A DNA stretch of 64,000 nucleotides. Origin: Gemmatimonadota bacterium. Lineage in GTDB: Bacteria; Gemmatimonadota; Gemmatimonadetes; Gemmatimonadales; GWC2-71-9. The stretch lies in NCBI GenBank assembly GCA_039588295.1, contig JBDHAB010000005.1, positions 1 through 64,000 of the forward strand. Direction: 5' to 3'. The number at the start of each line of letters is the position of its first letter. Positions within the stretch are counted from its first letter, which is position 1. Position numbers: made by a program. Shown piece by piece: positions 21,001 to 27,000 of the stretch.

Positions 21001-24000
21001 CGGCGGCAGCCGATACTGTGCCGTCTGCCCCGCCGTCCGTTGCCTGCGCGGCGGAGCCGGGGACCGGGGGCCGGGAGACCTCCCCCCCACCCATCATGGC
21101 ATGGGCGATATGCGACAGCGGCGCCAGGTCACCGCTCGCACCAACACTACCCTGCTCCGGGACGATCGGGTGAATGCCCGCATTGAGCATGTCCGCGATG
21201 TGCCGCACCACGAGGGGACGAACGCCGCTCGTCTCCCGGAGCAACACGTTGGCTCGGAGCAACATCGTGGCGCGTACGACATCCACAGGCAGGGGATCCC
21301 CCACCCCAGCCACATGGCTTACGATCAGGTTGCGCTGCAGCTCGAGCAGTTGGTCCGATGGAATACGCACGTTTGCGAGCCGACCAAAACCCGTGTTTAC
21401 TCCATAGATCGGCCCACCCTCTGCCAGCATCGCCTCCACCGCCTCCCGCGACCGCTCGGCACGCGCCGCCGCCACGGCGCTGACGTCCACCCGCACCTGC
21501 TCCCGCGAAACGGCGACTACGTCGCCAACATGCAGGGAATCGCCCGTGAGCGTGACTGTGTCCGTCATCCGGCGAAATATAGGTGGGGTGGAAGTGGGAA
21601 GGGATAAGGGACAGGCGAAAAGTGAGAAGTGAGTAGGAAGACGCGTCTGGCGACAACAGAAAGGGACAGACGGGAAGACGGCGCCGTCGGGCAGGAAGTC
21701 CTGATGTCCTGCGCGCCACGACGCCGTCTCACCCCATCAGGGAGCTTGGTTTCCCCCCGGTCCTTCGCCTTCCCTCCTGTCCCTTATCCCTTACCCCTTA
21801 TCCCTTATCCCTTATCGCTTGCTTATCCCTACTTCCGCTTCACGATGATTCCGGTGTCACCCGCCGTGAAGATCCCACCGCCAACCGAGAGCTCCGGGTT
21901 CCCCGGATCCGTCTGGTAACTCCACGAAAAGATCATGTAATTGGTGCCGACGTGGGTGACGTGCACTCCACCAAACCGGGCGAACCCATCACCGCCATCC
22001 ATCTCGAAGACGTAGCCGTACAACGGCAGGGCCGGAATCGCCGCTGGCGAGAAACCCGTTTCCGGTGCGACGTCGATCGAGGTCAGGTCGTCAATCGGCC
22101 CGCTGCCGTACGGCGCCACCGTGGTTCCCGCGCGAATCGGCAGCAGGAAGAAGTTGTCGTTGGCGTCTCGCGTCACGAGGAAATCGATGTCGGTTCCCGT
22201 CGCGCTCACGACTCTGCCAAGCTCGTTTGGACCTGCCAAACCGTCGTTATTCAGATCTTCGAAGAACCGAAAGCCGGCGGAGTCCGTCCTGAACTCAAGC
22301 GCCGTCATGATGACGTTGCGGGCGTCCGGCCGTGGCGTATCGGCACGAATCGGCGACCAGAGGCTCTCGAAGCCCTCAATGCTCTCGGCCGAAACACCGA
22401 AGCAGCGCGGCTGTCCGTTTTCCAGCACTCCAGCCAGAAACTCGGGCGCGACGGTCGTTCCCTCGAGCGACCAGAATTCATCGCACAGGTTGTCATCCAA
22501 CGAGTACGCCGCACTGTAGACACGGTACTGCTTGAAACCTTCGGGAGCCGTGGTGAACGCGTTGTCCGCCCACGCGAGATGGATCGCCCCATCCAGACTG
22601 GTGCTCAGCAACGATGCTGGGCTCTCGAGTCGCAGTCGCTCGTCGACCACCACGGCGTCGCTCGGCGGGCTCTCCACCCCATCGACATTGACGGACACCA
22701 CGTAGTACTCAAGGTCGGGTTGCCCACCGTCGTGGAACGTGTTGGAGGTCGTCTCGCCGCGGAGTCCGAACCCCGCCGCGTTGTCCGGACGCGAGTAGAT
22801 GCGGTAGACCTCAAGGTTCCCATCCTGTACGGCGTCCCAGAACAGGAGAATCCCCAGCGGGAGATCAGGATCTCCACTGGGTTCCAGCTCATAGCCCAGG
22901 TTCTGGGGCGTCTGAACTGGGGGCGCAAGCGGGTCGTCGCAGGCGACGACCGCGAGAGCCACGAGCAATCCGACGGCTATGCGTCGCATGTCAATATCCC
23001 TCGGGCGAGTTCTCGGGGAGCCCAAAAGTGCACGGAGCGTGCCGCGTCGGTCATATGGTCTAAGCCGTTGTCTAGTAGTCAATTACGTTGCTGCAGCTGT
23101 GCCCCGAAGTGTCACCCATTGGGGACAGACCGGGCACTCGGGCTCGCCTCGGAGGCGCGCGAGGATGCGATGCTACCCGCCCTGGCGCACCGTCCGCTGG
23201 TCGTATTGGAGTTTCAGCTCCGGCTGGTCGGTCAGCGAGATGTAGAAGTTGAACGCGAAGTTCCCGTTCGGGGCCTTGAGAAACGCAAACGTGGCGCGCC
23301 AGCGGTGGAGATCGCGGTCGAGTCGAACCACGTGCTGGCCAAACCGGTCGAGCGTGAAGTTGTACTGCGTACTCCACGACACCGACCAATGGCTGGTCGG
23401 TGAGAACCCCAGGGTGAGCCCGACAGTACGGTTTCCAGGGGTCTCGATCAACTCTCCCGCGGCGTCCTGTCGCGGCCGGCTTCGTTGATCGTCGAAGGTG
23501 ACCGATGCCTGAAACCCACGACCTCGCCGCGTGGGCACTTGGTCGAAACTCCGATCCAGCCTCGTGGGTGGTCCGAGCCCGGACCCCAGCGGCATCACGG
23601 GGTCTTCGGGATCGACCACCTCAAGGTCCTCGGGATCGGACGGCGGCGGGGTGTCACCGCCCGTGAGCAACGCGAAGATGGACGCGAAGGTCGCAGCTGA
23701 CAGACTGAACCGAGCCGACAGCGACGTCAGGAACGGGTCGAAACCGGTCGTGTCGAAGCCGACCTGACCGTCCCACAGGTCGTGTGACGTCGAGAACGAG
23801 AACCCTGGCAGCAGATCGCTGGTGAACCGATTCGTGAGACGTTGCGTGGTCCAGCCCGTGCGTCCTGGCTCTTGCGCCTGCTCGAAATCGTACTCGATGG
23901 GCGAGGTCTGAATGCTCAAGAGTTTCCGCTTCTGTGCCTCGCGGCCGCCGGTGGTGTCGCCCTGAGCCGGCCGCATCTTGCCTTCGAACGTCTGCGACAG

Positions 24001-27000
24001 CCCCAGGCCAATTCGGTGCAGCGCCGGACTCTCGCGGACAGGGTTCAGCCCGGTCGGATCGAGCGCCCGCGCGTACGCCTCAGGCACCGTCGCGGACGGG
24101 GCAAAGGACCAACTGACCAACGGTGACACGGCGTGACGGATGCGGCTCAGGGGCCCGAACCCGGGGAAGAACCCGAAGAACGTCGGTGACAGACTCGCGC
24201 TGAACGACAACCGTTTCCCCTGCGCCACGAAGTCGCCACCGGAGAAGCGATTCCGGAGCAGGAATGCTCCTCCCGTCGTGTTCCGGATCCCCACCGTCGG
24301 CTGGAGCTTCCAGCTCGACGGAAACAGAATGGGCAAGTTAATGCCCGTATTCCAGTCGATCTCGGTCCGGAAGTCCTCGCTATAGTACCGCGTCACCGAA
24401 TCACCGGGGGTTGCCGAGTCCGGCAGCACGAGCGGTGCCGGTGGCCGAGAAGTCCAGAAATCGGAGACGGTGAAGTCGTTGGCCCAGTTCCACCGACCGA
24501 CCCGAAGCGGGGTACGGAACGACAACGTGGTCGTGCGCGAGTCGATCAGGAGCGTGTCAAAAATTTCCTCACCACCAACTGGAGGCTGGGGAATCGCGAT
24601 TCCCGGGCCTTGGTCCAGGGTTCGTGAGTTCGTAAGCGAGAGCGCTGGTGACCACGTCACGTTCCGCGCGATCGAGATCGGGGTGGGCGTCAGGCTCAGG
24701 CTAGGCAGGGTCTGCGTGGCGGTGCCGTTGCTCAAGTCCTGGGAGTGGTTTCCCCCGAGCGTGACCGTACCCCACGAGAACTGCTTGCTGAAGTTGACGC
24801 GGCTCGAAAGTGTCGCCGTCTGGAGAAACGGGTCCACGGAATTCCGTTGGACCACCCGTGCACTGGTGGCGTAATCGACGTTGGCCGTGAGTCGGGTGCG
24901 TTGGTCAAAGCTCTGCTGGTGATTCCACTGCAGCCGCATCGACCGGCCACCGGGTTGGTCACCCTCGCCGTTCTCGAAGATCCAGGAGGCCGCCACACCG
25001 CCTGAGAGGAACCGGTTCAGCCACCGATAGCGCAGTTGGCCGTTGAACCCCACGTAGTTCCCCGAGAACCAGTCGATGGACGCCTGAAAATCCGTGTATT
25101 GGCTGATGGCGAAGTAGTACCCGATGTTCGAGATGTGGCGGCGATAATTGTCATTCGGGCGCACGAGATCGTTGAATCCGAACCGCGGCACGAGCATGCC
25201 GCTTCGCCGCCCGGGCCGCACGTCCTGAAACAGGAAAGGAAGCCATAGGACGGGAACGTCGCGCACGTACAGCACCATCGGCCGCGCGACCATGATCGTG
25301 TTGGTCACCCATTTCACATTGCCCGCGGTGATGTGATAGTGCGGCGTCGGGTGATCACAACTGGTGATCTCGTTCTTTGCGCCGTATATCCGCGTGGAAC
25401 CGGAATCGACTTCCAGACCGCCGCGCAAATACCACGTGACACCGGACTGCACGAAGCTGGTGAGCGCGCTCGGGACGGTACCGCGGTGCTCACAGGTGTC
25501 GTACCGCATGTCCTCTCCGACGAGCACCGTGCCGGCGTCAAACAGGGTGGGCTTCGGCGTGCCGCCGGCGACGAGGCGACAATCCGACTCCTGGAAGCTC
25601 ACCGTTCCCGCCTCGAGCGTGCTGCCTTCCCGATCGACCAGGGCCGAGCCGACGAGAACGACCTCGCGCCGCTCACCAAAGAGCGTAATGCTGTCACCGG
25701 CGTACCGAGTGATGACGTAGCCGGAGGAGCTGAGCAGCGCCTGAATCACCGAGTCGGGACTGGGGAATCCACGACTGGGTTTGGTGGGCAGGCCGAGGAG
25801 ACGCGCCGCCGCCGTGTCGACCGGCTGAAGGACGCTGTCTCCCTGCACACGGGCAAGCGTGTCGCGCACCGCCACGCTGTCGCGGCGCGGGCGCCGCAGG
25901 CGCTCCTGAGCCTCCGCACCGGCACTGACCACCATGAACAGCAGCACGACCGACGCCGTCCTGCCGATCGTCCCGCCGGCCCGGCGCTTGAGCAGGAGGC
26001 GCGACGTCAGTATGCCGAGCTCGTAGAGCAGCAACAGCGGCCCCGTCATCATGAGCATCGAAAGGGGGTCGGGCGGAGTGAGCATCGCGGCGACGATGCA
26101 GGCAAGCACGAGCGCAATCGGACGTTGCTTGGCAAACGTCCGGGGAGTCACCACGCCCAGCGTCGAGAACAGCACCATGACGATCGGAAGTTGGAACATG
26201 ATCCCGAACGCCAGGATCATCTGCAGGGCGAATCCGAAATACGCATCGGCCGTGTAGATGTACTCCAAACCGCCAAGTCGCTCCCCGAACGCGGTCAGGA
26301 TGCGAAACACCGCGGGCAGGACCCAGAGGTAGGCCATGAGCACACCCGCCAGGAACAGGCCAAGGCCCGCGATCAGGGTCGGCACGATAAAGCGCTTTTC
26401 GTGCTCATACAGCGCCGGCGCAAGGAACCGCCACACCTGCGCGAAGATCACCGGCGAGGCGAGGATCACGCCGATGCTCAGGGCGAGTTTGAGCGTGATG
26501 ATGAAGGGGTCGGTGGGGCGGGTGACAAACAGCCTCCCTTCCGGGAGGTACGGCGCGATCGGCGCCTTCATGAGATCGAAGATGTCGAACTGCTGCAGCA
26601 GGAAGAACCCCACCACGCTACCGGCGACGAGCGCAGCCAGGCTCCACAGGATACGCCACCTCAGCTCTTCGAGGTGATCCAGAAAGGGCATCTCGCCCTT
26701 GGAGATTTTCGGTCTCATGTGGAAGACGGCGGGAAGACCCGCGCCTCAACGATCGGGATTGCCGAGCTTGGTCCGTGCGAGCTGCGCTTCTTCCGACCGC
26801 GGATAGCCCGCGATCACCCGTTGGTAATACACCTCCGCCGCCCGCTGGTCCCCACGCCGTTCGGCGATGAGCCCCAGCCGGTAGAGTCCCGTCGGAGCCC
26901 TGCGCGAATCGGGATAGTCGCGTACAACCCTCTCGTACGCCCGCGCCGCCGAATCCGGATCGGTCGCTTCCCATGACTCGCCCAGGAAGAACCTCGCGTC

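Follow-up and report, generated by a model that had tools for sequence, protein, structure and literature searches.

TatC and LptD are encoded as a single chain in the window, by which we mean the whole stretch of 64,000 nucleotides analysed here, from an uncultured Gemmatimonadales bacterium. The reading frame is open over 23173..26718 on the minus strand, 1181 codons counted from the first ATG, and is a genuine gene fusion. The best explanation as a whole, to which we give a probability of roughly 0.7, is that the fusion arose from a coupled gene pair and that the chain would be cut back into TatC and LptD. The initial annotation of this locus had described TatC, a signal-peptide-like stretch, and an LptD-like jellyroll and barrel in one ORF, as the frame, the Pfam matches, and the folds confirm. 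In its broader interpretation, the fusion and the embedded LptD signal peptide stand, while phylum-wide conservation and obligate coupling do not (see below). Met10 is invariant among 112 aligned homologues (alignment A1), hence the gene probably starts at 26691 and has 1172 codons, the length originally given. Residue numbers for the junction and the domains follow the 1181-residue numbering.

23173..26718, minus strand: whole tatC::lptD ORF, with the stop codon at 23173-23175 and the likely true start at Met10
25990..26691, minus strand: TatC part, residues 10-243, six transmembrane helices (Pfam match at nt 26038-26679; NCBIfam; AF2; Foldseek)
25960..25989, minus strand: basic, putatively cytoplasmic loop, K244-R253, with four K/R, corresponding to the n-region of the embedded signal peptide (sequence)
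25921..25959, minus strand: h-region, T254-A266, 13 residues, candidate seventh helix (sequence)
25909..25920, minus strand: c-region G267-A268-E269-A270; signal peptidase I is predicted to cut after A270 (nt 25909-25911), ahead of Q271 (nt 25906-25908) (column counts)
25711..25908, minus strand: predicted mature N-terminal segment of LptD, residues 271-336, mostly disordered, with a conserved motif at about 299-323 (AF2; alignment A1)
25222..25710, minus strand: LptD beta-jellyroll, residues 337-499 (AF2 strands; Foldseek matches to full-length LptD structures)
23191..25137, minus strand: large LptD beta-barrel, residues 528-1176, with a single low-confidence loop at 1034-1062 (AF2; Foldseek; Pfam LptD_2)
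12766..12918, minus strand: tatA/B/E-family gene encoding the TatC partner, the only one found in the genome (PF02416, E 1.4e-19)
26746..27513, minus strand: TPR protein of the CpoB/YbgF type, upstream neighbour (Pfam TPR_6, TPR_16, and a weak YfiO match)
27510-28133, minus strand: pal-like gene (OmpA domain), further upstream (Pfam)
28153-30522, minus strand: tolB-like gene (PD40 repeats), further upstream (Pfam)

In the first half of the chain, residues 14-227 match Pfam TatC (PF00902) over the entire profile (1-208 of 208; E 4.6e-64, 216.5 bits against a cut-off of 25.1), and the NCBIfam tatC equivalog TIGR00945 gives 203.5 bits against a cut-off of 132.7. AF2 places helices at 12-248, mostly with confidence (block means 63-93), and Foldseek aligns this half to 4b4a, 4hts, 9dzz, 9e01, 9e02, and 9e07 with TM-scores of 0.78-0.83 and 34-40% identity. 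Residues E17, E18, and E107 are invariant in the 112 homologues and may be the equivalents of the functional glutamates of E. coli TatC involved in signal-peptide binding. Like the solved TatC proteins (PDB 4b4a, 4hts, 9dzz), this one has six helices and a full-length profile match, and the genome supplies a TatA-family partner for it, but it has no stop codon after TM6 and would end in an extra membrane segment with its C-terminus facing the periplasm. As tatC lacks a stop codon, TatC is always made within the long chain.

The second half matches Pfam LptD_2 (PF19838) with 136.6 bits against a cut-off of 22.5. The match falls into two stretches, of which 477-680 is the stronger (E 1.3e-39). 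Classical LptD (PF04453) has no match above the cut-off in the assembly (9.2 bits against 22.4), and this half stays below the thresholds of the NCBIfam equivalogs NF002997 (29.6 bits against 683) and NF003358. Hence, the protein is a relative of the LptD_2 type and not an equivalog of enterobacterial LptD. Both TatC and LptD-like genes had been reported as the only ones of the genome; the assembly, which comprises 160 contigs and is 96.3% complete, indeed yields a single TatC match, and the LptD_2 matches are confined to this ORF. Foldseek against the PDB ranks LptD chains in each of the first 16 places (E 3.7e-25 for 8h1s down to 1.4e-12; target TM-score 0.49-0.60), with TatC next. When compared with proteobacterial LptD in LptDE complexes (PDB 8h1s, 4q35, 5iv9, 7omm, 9kn3; E 3.7e-25 to 1e-17 over about 900 aligned columns), the arrangement is the same, an N-terminal beta-jellyroll followed by a very large barrel, but identity is only 10-12%, the Pfam family is PF19838 and not PF04453, and about 66 further residues form an additional segment at the N-terminus. 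AF2 confidence is below 50 for residues 259-298, and D301, P311, P314, P319, and D322 are invariant in alignment A1. The only cysteines lie in the jellyroll, at 380, 409, and 454, with none in the barrel; Cys380 and Cys409 are each kept in 108 of 112 sequences. In E. coli LptD, interdomain disulfides link the jellyroll to the barrel, and such bonds cannot form here since the barrel has no cysteine. As in proteobacterial LptDE systems, the genome encodes LptE (50.2 bits), LptC (34.2 bits), LptF/G, and an LptA-like ORF that adjoins lptC (PF03968, 24.5 bits against a cut-off of 20.4). The fold, these pathway partners, and the absence of another LptD in the assembly suggest that the LptD half inserts LPS.

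The joint between the two halves has the parts of a Sec-type signal peptide. It reads K244-R-R-A-G-G-T-I-G-R253, then T254 to A266, then G-A-E-A270 followed by Q271, that is, a basic n-region (K244, R245, R246, R253), an h-region, small residues at A268 and A270, and a residue other than Pro at +1. The initial annotation had proposed an in-frame signal peptide ending A-x-A|Q, and this is borne out by the junction sequence and by an alignment: the embedded segment aligns with the N-terminal signal peptide of the separate lptD of a congener (G112), and the two share the mature N-terminus (Q-E-R...P-R-R-D-S). Judged by this homology, the embedded hydrophobic stretch is the former N-terminal Sec signal peptide of LptD. 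We assessed the motif by column counts and inspection. The R/K-rich stretch ahead of the h-region is kept in the aligned fused homologues. Among 120 fused proteins, position -1 is A, G, S, or T in 118 (A96/G16/S5/T1/Q2), position -3 is A, L, G, V, S, or T in all (A67/L27/G10/V9/S5/T2), and all 120 carry Q at +1. There is free variation at -2 and -4, and -6 and -5 are mostly P, G, or A. Measured as the longest run of hydrophobic or small residues, the hydrophobic segment spans 11-22 positions (median 15) in these proteins; a membrane anchor is typically longer. The motif is kept down to about 45% identity, i.e., across deep divergence, although part of it may be inherited rather than selected, as the sampled proteins are related. 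In a separate search of species representatives, a site was found in 60 of 60 fused loci; this search demanded Q at +1, so that only the recovery is informative and not the residue counts. The genome has a signal peptidase I gene (Peptidase_S26, E 6.7e-50). Cleavage by this enzyme at the joint is the reading we favour, given the strict conservation of -3, -1, and +1 in the 120 fused proteins, the short h-region, and the interchangeability of fused and split forms.

The invariant Q at +1 has a parallel in the rest of the genome. In a crude genome-wide scan, 218 of 804 candidates have Q right after a permitted cleavage site, which is 8.4 times the background. Cys reaches 36.9 times in the same scan, the expected lipobox result, which serves as a positive control, and all other residues lie at 1.0-3.3 times. 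To the extent that so crude a scan can indicate, Q at +1 may thus mark exposed N-termini in this organism, which also encodes a glutaminyl cyclase. A Q-rule is described for Bacteroidetes in PMC5837995. The separate lptD signal peptides elsewhere in the phylum end in small-x-small followed by Q, though +1 is often not Q in the more distant families.

The fusion is common in one family and rare outside it. Of the 138 TatC-bearing genomes sampled from the family to which the window belongs, 109 have a TatC frame of at least 1000 aa. In a neighbouring family, two genomes of one genus (G047, G228) have an independent fusion with the same joint features. All other Gemmatimonadota families seen have separate tatC and lptD, so the suggested conservation across the phylum does not hold. 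There, the two genes are adjacent and often overlap (ATGA/GTGA). Among 30 phylum loci, a separate lptD directly follows tatC in 23, most of these with an N-terminal signal peptide of their own (by inspection), 3 are fused, and 4 have no downstream match. Of 22 split loci with an assignable start, 8 have a 4-nt overlap between the tatC stop and the lptD start, and in 2 others the two are separated by 2 nt. These separate genes are probably co-expressed through translational coupling, and a translationally coupled tatC-lptD pair is the ancestral arrangement in the phylum. Within the window's family, 78 species-representative loci comprise 60 fused, 7 split, and 11 cut by contig ends. In the split congener G112, 2 nt lie between the tatC stop and an ATG, from which a signal peptide leads into the mature N-terminus found in the window. 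In five genomes cpoB and lptD are together and tatC lies elsewhere; the CpoB-type gene is directly upstream of lptD also where tatC was lost from this position. A tree of 70 LptD N-terminal parts requires at least 8 changes of the fused state. The coupling, which had been thought obligate, is not, since the fused state flips often, a species of the same genus is split, and the genes are unlinked in five genomes. At the level of databases, a search with residues 1-520 (E<=1e-5) matches 1260 proteins of 649-2067 aa. In each of the 120 best, PF00902 and PF19838 lie on one chain, in agreement with the earlier search, and those with a named source come from Gemmatimonadota or Gemmatimonadales.

These observations are best accommodated by a fusion that is undone by processing. 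A translationally coupled tatC-lptD pair would have lost the frame difference between its genes, and the ribosome would now make a single chain, which may yield TatC and LptD in the 1:1 ratio put forward in the initial annotation. The six TatC helices would enter the inner membrane such that the C-terminus stays cytoplasmic, and the short basic loop would keep the former signal peptide of LptD in an N-in/C-out orientation, acting as a seventh helix; this topology, put forward in the initial annotation, is consistent with a cytoplasmic TatC C-terminus. AF2 confidence at the joint is very low (pLDDT 29-45 for 249-298), and the model thus speaks neither for nor against such a helix. The seventh helix would initiate Sec-dependent export of the LptD part of about 910 residues, and signal peptidase I would cut after A268-E269-A270. 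The new N-terminal Gln271 may be cyclised by the genome's glutaminyl cyclase. Mature LptD would then reach the outer membrane and work with LptE, and a signal-peptide remnant of about 27 residues would stay on TatC as a C-terminal tail. If the chain is cut, the end products would equal those of relatives with separate genes. In other words, the fusion would be a nearly neutral variant of operon coupling and no new machine.

Alternatively, the chain may stay uncut, with the hydrophobic segment as a permanent seventh helix that tethers LptD to TatC. A single polypeptide would then run across the inner membrane, the periplasm, and the outer membrane, holding the LPS exit site beside the Tat site. 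The disordered linker of about 66 residues after the helix (271-336) could in principle cross the periplasm, and the fusion is retained in most of a large family. Yet a plain anchor does not need the signal peptidase I-type pattern at -3, -1, and +1, kept while -2 and -4 drift, and the hydrophobic run is short. The same linker and conserved motif occur in relatives with a free LptD, an LptA-like bridge protein and LptC are encoded, and a functional tether is difficult to square with the repeated switching to genes that are split or unlinked. We therefore consider a permanent tether improbable.

A smaller chance still is left to an LptD precursor made mainly from an internal translation start, with the read-through chain a tolerated by-product or merely the route to TatC. 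In some fused homologues (L020, L038, L042, L058), an in-frame ATG or GTG does occur where TM6 ends, directly ahead of the basic stretch; a candidate start that lies after TM6 but before the h-region is seen in 9 of 60 fused loci. However, the other 51 have no such codon, and no Met is conserved at the joint over 120 proteins, as a smaller sample had indicated. In the window, the stretch from where TM6 ends up to the hydrophobic core is free of ATG, GTG, and TTG codons. The earliest is a GTG at residue 258, the codon earlier numbered 249, which lies within the core and would give a 13-residue leader lacking a basic n-region. An internal start would in any case leave every TatC carrying LptD, since there is no stop codon.

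As far as sequence data can do so, they refute the reading of the fusion as a pseudogene or as an artefact of assembly or sequencing. The fused genomes listed are all metagenome-assembled, single-base errors can merge overlapping genes in such bins, and one relative (G419) has a fused joint with an in-frame stop further on. However, the same in-frame joint recurs across the family (109 genomes), among species representatives (60 loci, from many projects), and in the 1260 database proteins, and the many invariant columns of both halves (alignment A1) indicate clear purifying selection. One short public contig, possibly from the source sample, also spans the joint (25795-26010) with no difference or gap.

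Our literature search found no paper describing a TatC-LptD fusion, and the arrangement can be compared with known systems. In viral polyproteins, such as flavivirus and bunyavirus glycoprotein precursors, an internal signal peptide likewise re-initiates translocation and marks a cut; there, the cut is made by the host signal peptidase in the eukaryotic ER, and these proteins are unrelated to the window in sequence and context.

A bacterial counterpart is FbcH of Bradyrhizobium japonicum, the cytochrome b/c1 precursor studied by Thony-Meyer and colleagues, whose chain is reportedly split by signal peptidase. There too, one chain begins with a polytopic inner-membrane protein and continues through an internal signal peptide into an exported protein. 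Both of its products remain in one inner-membrane complex, whereas those of the window belong to unrelated machines in two membranes and their processing is only predicted. As there is no sequence relationship, the resemblance is an analogy and not membership.

Finally, the separate tatC and lptD (LptD_2) genes of other Gemmatimonadota encode the same two proteins in the same order downstream of tol-pal-cpoB, and their LptD shares the signal peptide and the mature N-terminus. A stop and a new start lie between the two genes, whereas the window has one continuous frame. Hence, the LptD signal peptide is internal here and would remain on TatC after any cleavage.

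The TatC and the LptD-like protein of this genome are encoded in a single reading frame, which lies on the minus strand among the following genes (window coordinates).

30648-31382, minus strand: tolQ-like gene, upstream of tatC::lptD
28153-30522, minus strand: tolB-like gene, upstream
27510-28133, minus strand: pal-like gene, upstream
26746-27513, minus strand: cpoB/ybgF-like gene, directly upstream
23173-26718, minus strand: tatC::lptD, one frame of 1181 codons from the first ATG
21829-23082, minus strand: ORF of 417 residues, directly downstream of lptD, no Pfam match
20027-21568, minus strand: hutH-like gene, histidine-utilisation cluster, further downstream
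18357-20030, minus strand: urocanase gene, histidine-utilisation cluster, further downstream
17095-18330, minus strand: imidazolonepropionase-like amidohydrolase gene, histidine-utilisation cluster, further downstream

Since Met10 is invariant in an alignment of 112 homologues, the likely product is that of the 1172-codon gene starting at 26691, as the initial annotation had it; residue numbers given here follow the 1181-residue frame. Pfam recognizes TatC in full at residues 14-227 (E 4.6e-64; profile positions 1-208 of 208) and LptD_2 in two stretches, the best of which covers residues 477-680 (E 1.3e-39). The frame exceeds the NCBIfam cut-off of the tatC equivalog (203.5 vs 132.7 bits), and the enterobacterial LptD equivalogs match it faintly (29.6 vs 683 bits). 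In the assembly (160 contigs, 96.3% complete) it holds the single TatC match and all the LptD_2 matches, and nothing rises above the cut-off of the classical LptD family, PF04453. AlphaFold2, run on the full chain with the 112-sequence alignment, gave a model with a mean pLDDT of 79.9 and a pTM of 0.61. The helices at residues 12-248, the jellyroll at 337-499 and the barrel at 528-1176 are mostly confident, except for a low-confidence loop at 1034-1062, and the joint region (249-298) has very low confidence. The top Foldseek matches in the PDB are 16 LptD chains (E 3.7e-25 to 1.4e-12), with full-length entries aligning over about 900 columns, and solved TatC structures rank after them (TM-score 0.78-0.83, 34-40% identity). 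The model and these matches thus identify both halves as they had been named. Compared with proteobacterial LptD, the LptD part has only 10-12% identity, falls in the LptD_2 family, and lacks cysteine in its barrel.

We also observed a strongly conserved motif at residues 299-323 (25750-25824), just before the jellyroll, in the otherwise disordered N-terminus of the mature LptD part. Five of its residues are invariant (D301, P311, P314, P319, D322) and eight are at least 90% conserved (T302, A305, R306, L308, G309, L310, R316, S323). The motif is common to fused and split relatives, and may serve to dock a partner.

The genes at 26746-31382 look like one envelope operon together with tatC::lptD, and tatA lies about 10 kb away, inside the window. 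The ORF downstream of lptD occupies the same position in relatives (L088-L090), with 46-57% identity. As the genome encodes LptC, an LptA-like protein, LptE and LptF/G, it is reasonable to take the barrel for the LPS translocon. The LptA-like ORF (422 residues, much longer than LptA of E. coli; PF03968, 24.5 bits, above the cut-off) is on the minus strand of contig C18 of this genome (locus L066, 159-1427). It adjoins lptC (L066, 1432-2043) in a cluster with kdsA-like and HAD-phosphatase (kdsA/kdsC-type) genes. We rejected the notion of a genome devoid of an LptA bridge: the genome search with PF03968, empty at E<=1, was a false negative, as the ORF passes the protein scan.

To describe the distribution of the fusion, we call loci fused when tatC and lptD share one frame, split when they are adjacent separate genes, and unlinked when tatC is elsewhere. 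A profile scan of 401 genomes of the phylum identified TatC in 393. Among the best 150 of 406 matches, frames of at least 1000 residues occur only in the family of the window genome (f1) and in two genomes, G047 and G228, which belong to a single genus of a neighbouring family, f2; those of the other families have about 255-400 residues. Within these matches, the fusion is thus much more restricted than the conservation across Gemmatimonadota that had been proposed. In f1, where TatC was found in 138 of 141 genomes, the frame has at least 1000 residues in 109 of the 138, 400-999 residues in 11, some of them ending at contig ends, and fewer than 400 in 18. The intermediate frames that we examined are a split case, an unlinked case, and a fused case with a later in-frame stop. 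The phylum and f1 counts take in five genomes flagged as unpublished (G057, G097, G182, G406, G457), and no conclusion rests on these alone. In a species-representative collection, the best 80 hits provided 78 loci, all from metagenome-assembled genomes by title: 60 fused, 7 split, and 11 without the 3' end of tatC.

Two cases deserve separate mention. L083 (G419:C173:4130-7500) has a fused-type in-frame joint, but its LptD part is interrupted by an in-frame stop at position 1534 of the locus; it comes from a bin that is 83% complete, and either a pseudogene or an error of sequencing could account for it. On one contig of a metagenome-assembled genome, two full-length TatC-LptD matches (L134, 182474-187996, 45% identical to the query; L137, 188030-193555, 47% identical) are arranged tail to tail with about 2 kb between them, so that either the fused gene has been duplicated or the contig is chimeric.

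The unfused relatives indicate how the joint may have arisen. An LptD homologue lies directly downstream of tatC in 26 of 30 loci sampled across the phylum (3 fused, 23 split), and the remaining four have no downstream LptD match. By inspection, the separate lptD opens with its own classical signal peptide in most split loci. We measured the spacing on the split loci of L006-L064, where the start was assignable in 22 of 26: in eight of the 22, the end of tatC shares 4 nt (ATGA or GTGA) with the start of lptD, in two the gap between them is 2 nt, and in the remainder the spacing ranges from -52 to +86 nt. The ancestral state was therefore a tightly coupled tatC-lptD pair, the coupling being probably translational. 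A single frame change would convert such a pair into a fusion. In G112, a split species of the window genus, tatC stops just after the conserved basic stretch ending in I-G-T, and two bases after this stop lptD begins at an ATG and encodes a typical signal peptide. The latter ends in A-A, with Q-E-R after the cut, and the mature protein has the same P-R-R-D-S as the window. Given this arrangement, the internal hydrophobic stretch of the window ORF is LptD's own signal peptide.

To study the switching between states, we built a maximum-likelihood tree of the N-terminal part of LptD with 70 loci (33 fused, 32 split, 5 unlinked), in which exceptions were over-sampled on purpose and the proportions of states are thus unrepresentative; it takes in L023, L037 and L046, from three genomes flagged as unpublished. 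All deep clades are split, and the fused state is found within one well-supported clade of 44 rows and in a separate pair in its sister clade. It requires at least 8 changes, the same number being forced by the well-supported branches alone, against a mean of 23.5 when states are shuffled (0 of 500 shuffles were as low). Single genera hold both states: G178 is fused and G048 and G001 are split, and in the window genus G112 is split, against full-length frames in G109, G149 and G176. In five f1 genomes (G025, G033, G066, G172, G236), lptD directly follows cpoB and carries a signal peptide of its own, and tatC is elsewhere; the cpoB-lptD adjacency thus persists where tatC has left the locus, and the downstream neighbour is the same as in the window. 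Another genome, G045, has on contig C1 (L075, L076) both a fused frame of 1201 residues and a second, stand-alone tatC of 286 residues, of the type found in genomes whose lptD has lost the TatC part. It looks like an intermediate toward unlinking. With such split and unlinked close relatives, the coupling is neither phylum-wide nor obligate, contrary to what the initial annotation had put forward. Reversals this frequent speak against a deep functional coupling and limit the importance of the finding. The sequence comparisons point to the fusion as an almost neutral form of operon coupling, not a new coupled machine.

Is the long chain cut? After TM6, the window frame reads K244-R-R-A-G-G-T-I-G-R253, a hydrophobic stretch of 13 residues (T254-A266), G-A-E-A270, and then Q271, with the predicted cut between A270 and Q271. 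In 120 column-aligned fused proteins, position -1 is A, G, S or T in 118, position -3 is A, L, G, V, S or T in all, and position +1 is Q in all; positions -2 and -4 differ widely among the proteins, and most residues at -6 and -5 are P, A or G. This pattern is the signature of signal peptidase I substrates, and the window genome encodes this enzyme. Ahead of the site, the longest run of hydrophobic or small residues has a median length of 15 (range 11-22), which is short for a permanent membrane anchor. The independently arisen fusions of G047 and G228 have a longer TatC tail and the same joint features. Moreover, the free switching between fused and split genes is easiest to understand if both forms yield the same mature proteins. 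Judging from these sequence features, we consider it likely, with a probability of about 0.7, that the product of the family-level fusion is cut by signal peptidase I.

An internal translation start could instead provide a separate LptD precursor, and in a few homologues an ATG or GTG that may occasionally be used does lie where TM6 ends. Yet, past TM6, the window ORF offers no ATG, GTG or TTG until the hydrophobic core is reached: the first candidate is the GTG at residue 258, which bears out the earlier observation. Similarly, 51 of 60 fused loci have no candidate start between TM6 and the h-region, and no Met is conserved in the joint. Shine-Dalgarno motifs lie upstream of only three candidate internal starts, a count to which we give no weight, as the usage of such motifs in the phylum is uncalibrated. 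This alternative matters less than it appears, because tatC has no stop codon and every TatC molecule is thus made within the long chain. After cleavage, TatC would permanently retain the LptD signal peptide as a covalent seventh helix with a periplasmic C-terminus. It is improbable that this remnant is not inert and tunes Tat activity in or beside the signal-peptide or TatA/B sites of TatC, or that an uncut fraction holds LPS insertion at Tat sites in the Tol-Pal envelope cluster; if true, either would be a natural physical link, in this family, from inner-membrane export to outer-membrane growth.

Cleavage by signal peptidase I would leave a Gln at the N-terminus of LptD. Under the Q-rule of Bacteroidetes, signal peptidase I exposes an N-terminal Gln from which glutaminyl cyclase makes pyroglutamate; the 2018 paper on this rule does not mention Gemmatimonadetes (PMC5837995). 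The invariant +1 Gln of the fused proteins fits this rule and adds to the case for cleavage. The window genome encodes a glutaminyl cyclase (G000:C64:7526-8248; PF05096, E 3.1e-80). In a crude genome-wide scan of 804 N-termini resembling signal peptides, Q comes right after an allowed site in 218, which is 8.4 times the background. Cys at +1 reached 36.9 times the background, the result expected for lipoproteins and a positive control, and other residues 1.0-3.3 times. The cyclase and the 8.4-fold excess of Gln suggest that a Q-rule of the Bacteroidetes type may hold in this Gemmatimonadales genome.

We found no description of a TatC-LptD fusion among the papers listed on TatC, LptD and Gemmatimonadetes, and a survey of TatC diversity that included one Gemmatimonadetes genome does not mention "fusion" or "fused" (PMC3827258). 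Databases name the whole protein of about 1170 residues "TatC" or "hypothetical", and pipelines that call the entire chain TatC hide the LptD of the phylum. The gene is a real, well-conserved, family-level fusion in which a retained signal peptide links an inner-membrane protein with one of the outer membrane. The arrangement is unusual, lends itself to teaching, and appears to be unpublished. It shows how easily genes that overlap and are coupled in translation can fuse and come apart again. If cut as proposed, the product would be a rare natural bacterial polyprotein, supplying two membranes from one translation product with nothing more than an ordinary signal peptide placed internally. It would also be a test case for how Sec handles a cleavable signal peptide after six membrane helices, whether signal peptidase I cuts at such internal sites, and what becomes of a signal peptide that cannot be set free for degradation. 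In sister lineages, the split tatC and lptD genes are the closest relatives of the fusion. In mechanism, its closest analogue is FbcH of Bradyrhizobium, a cytochrome b/c1 precursor with an internal signal peptide, and the same principle is used by the polyproteins of eukaryotic viruses.
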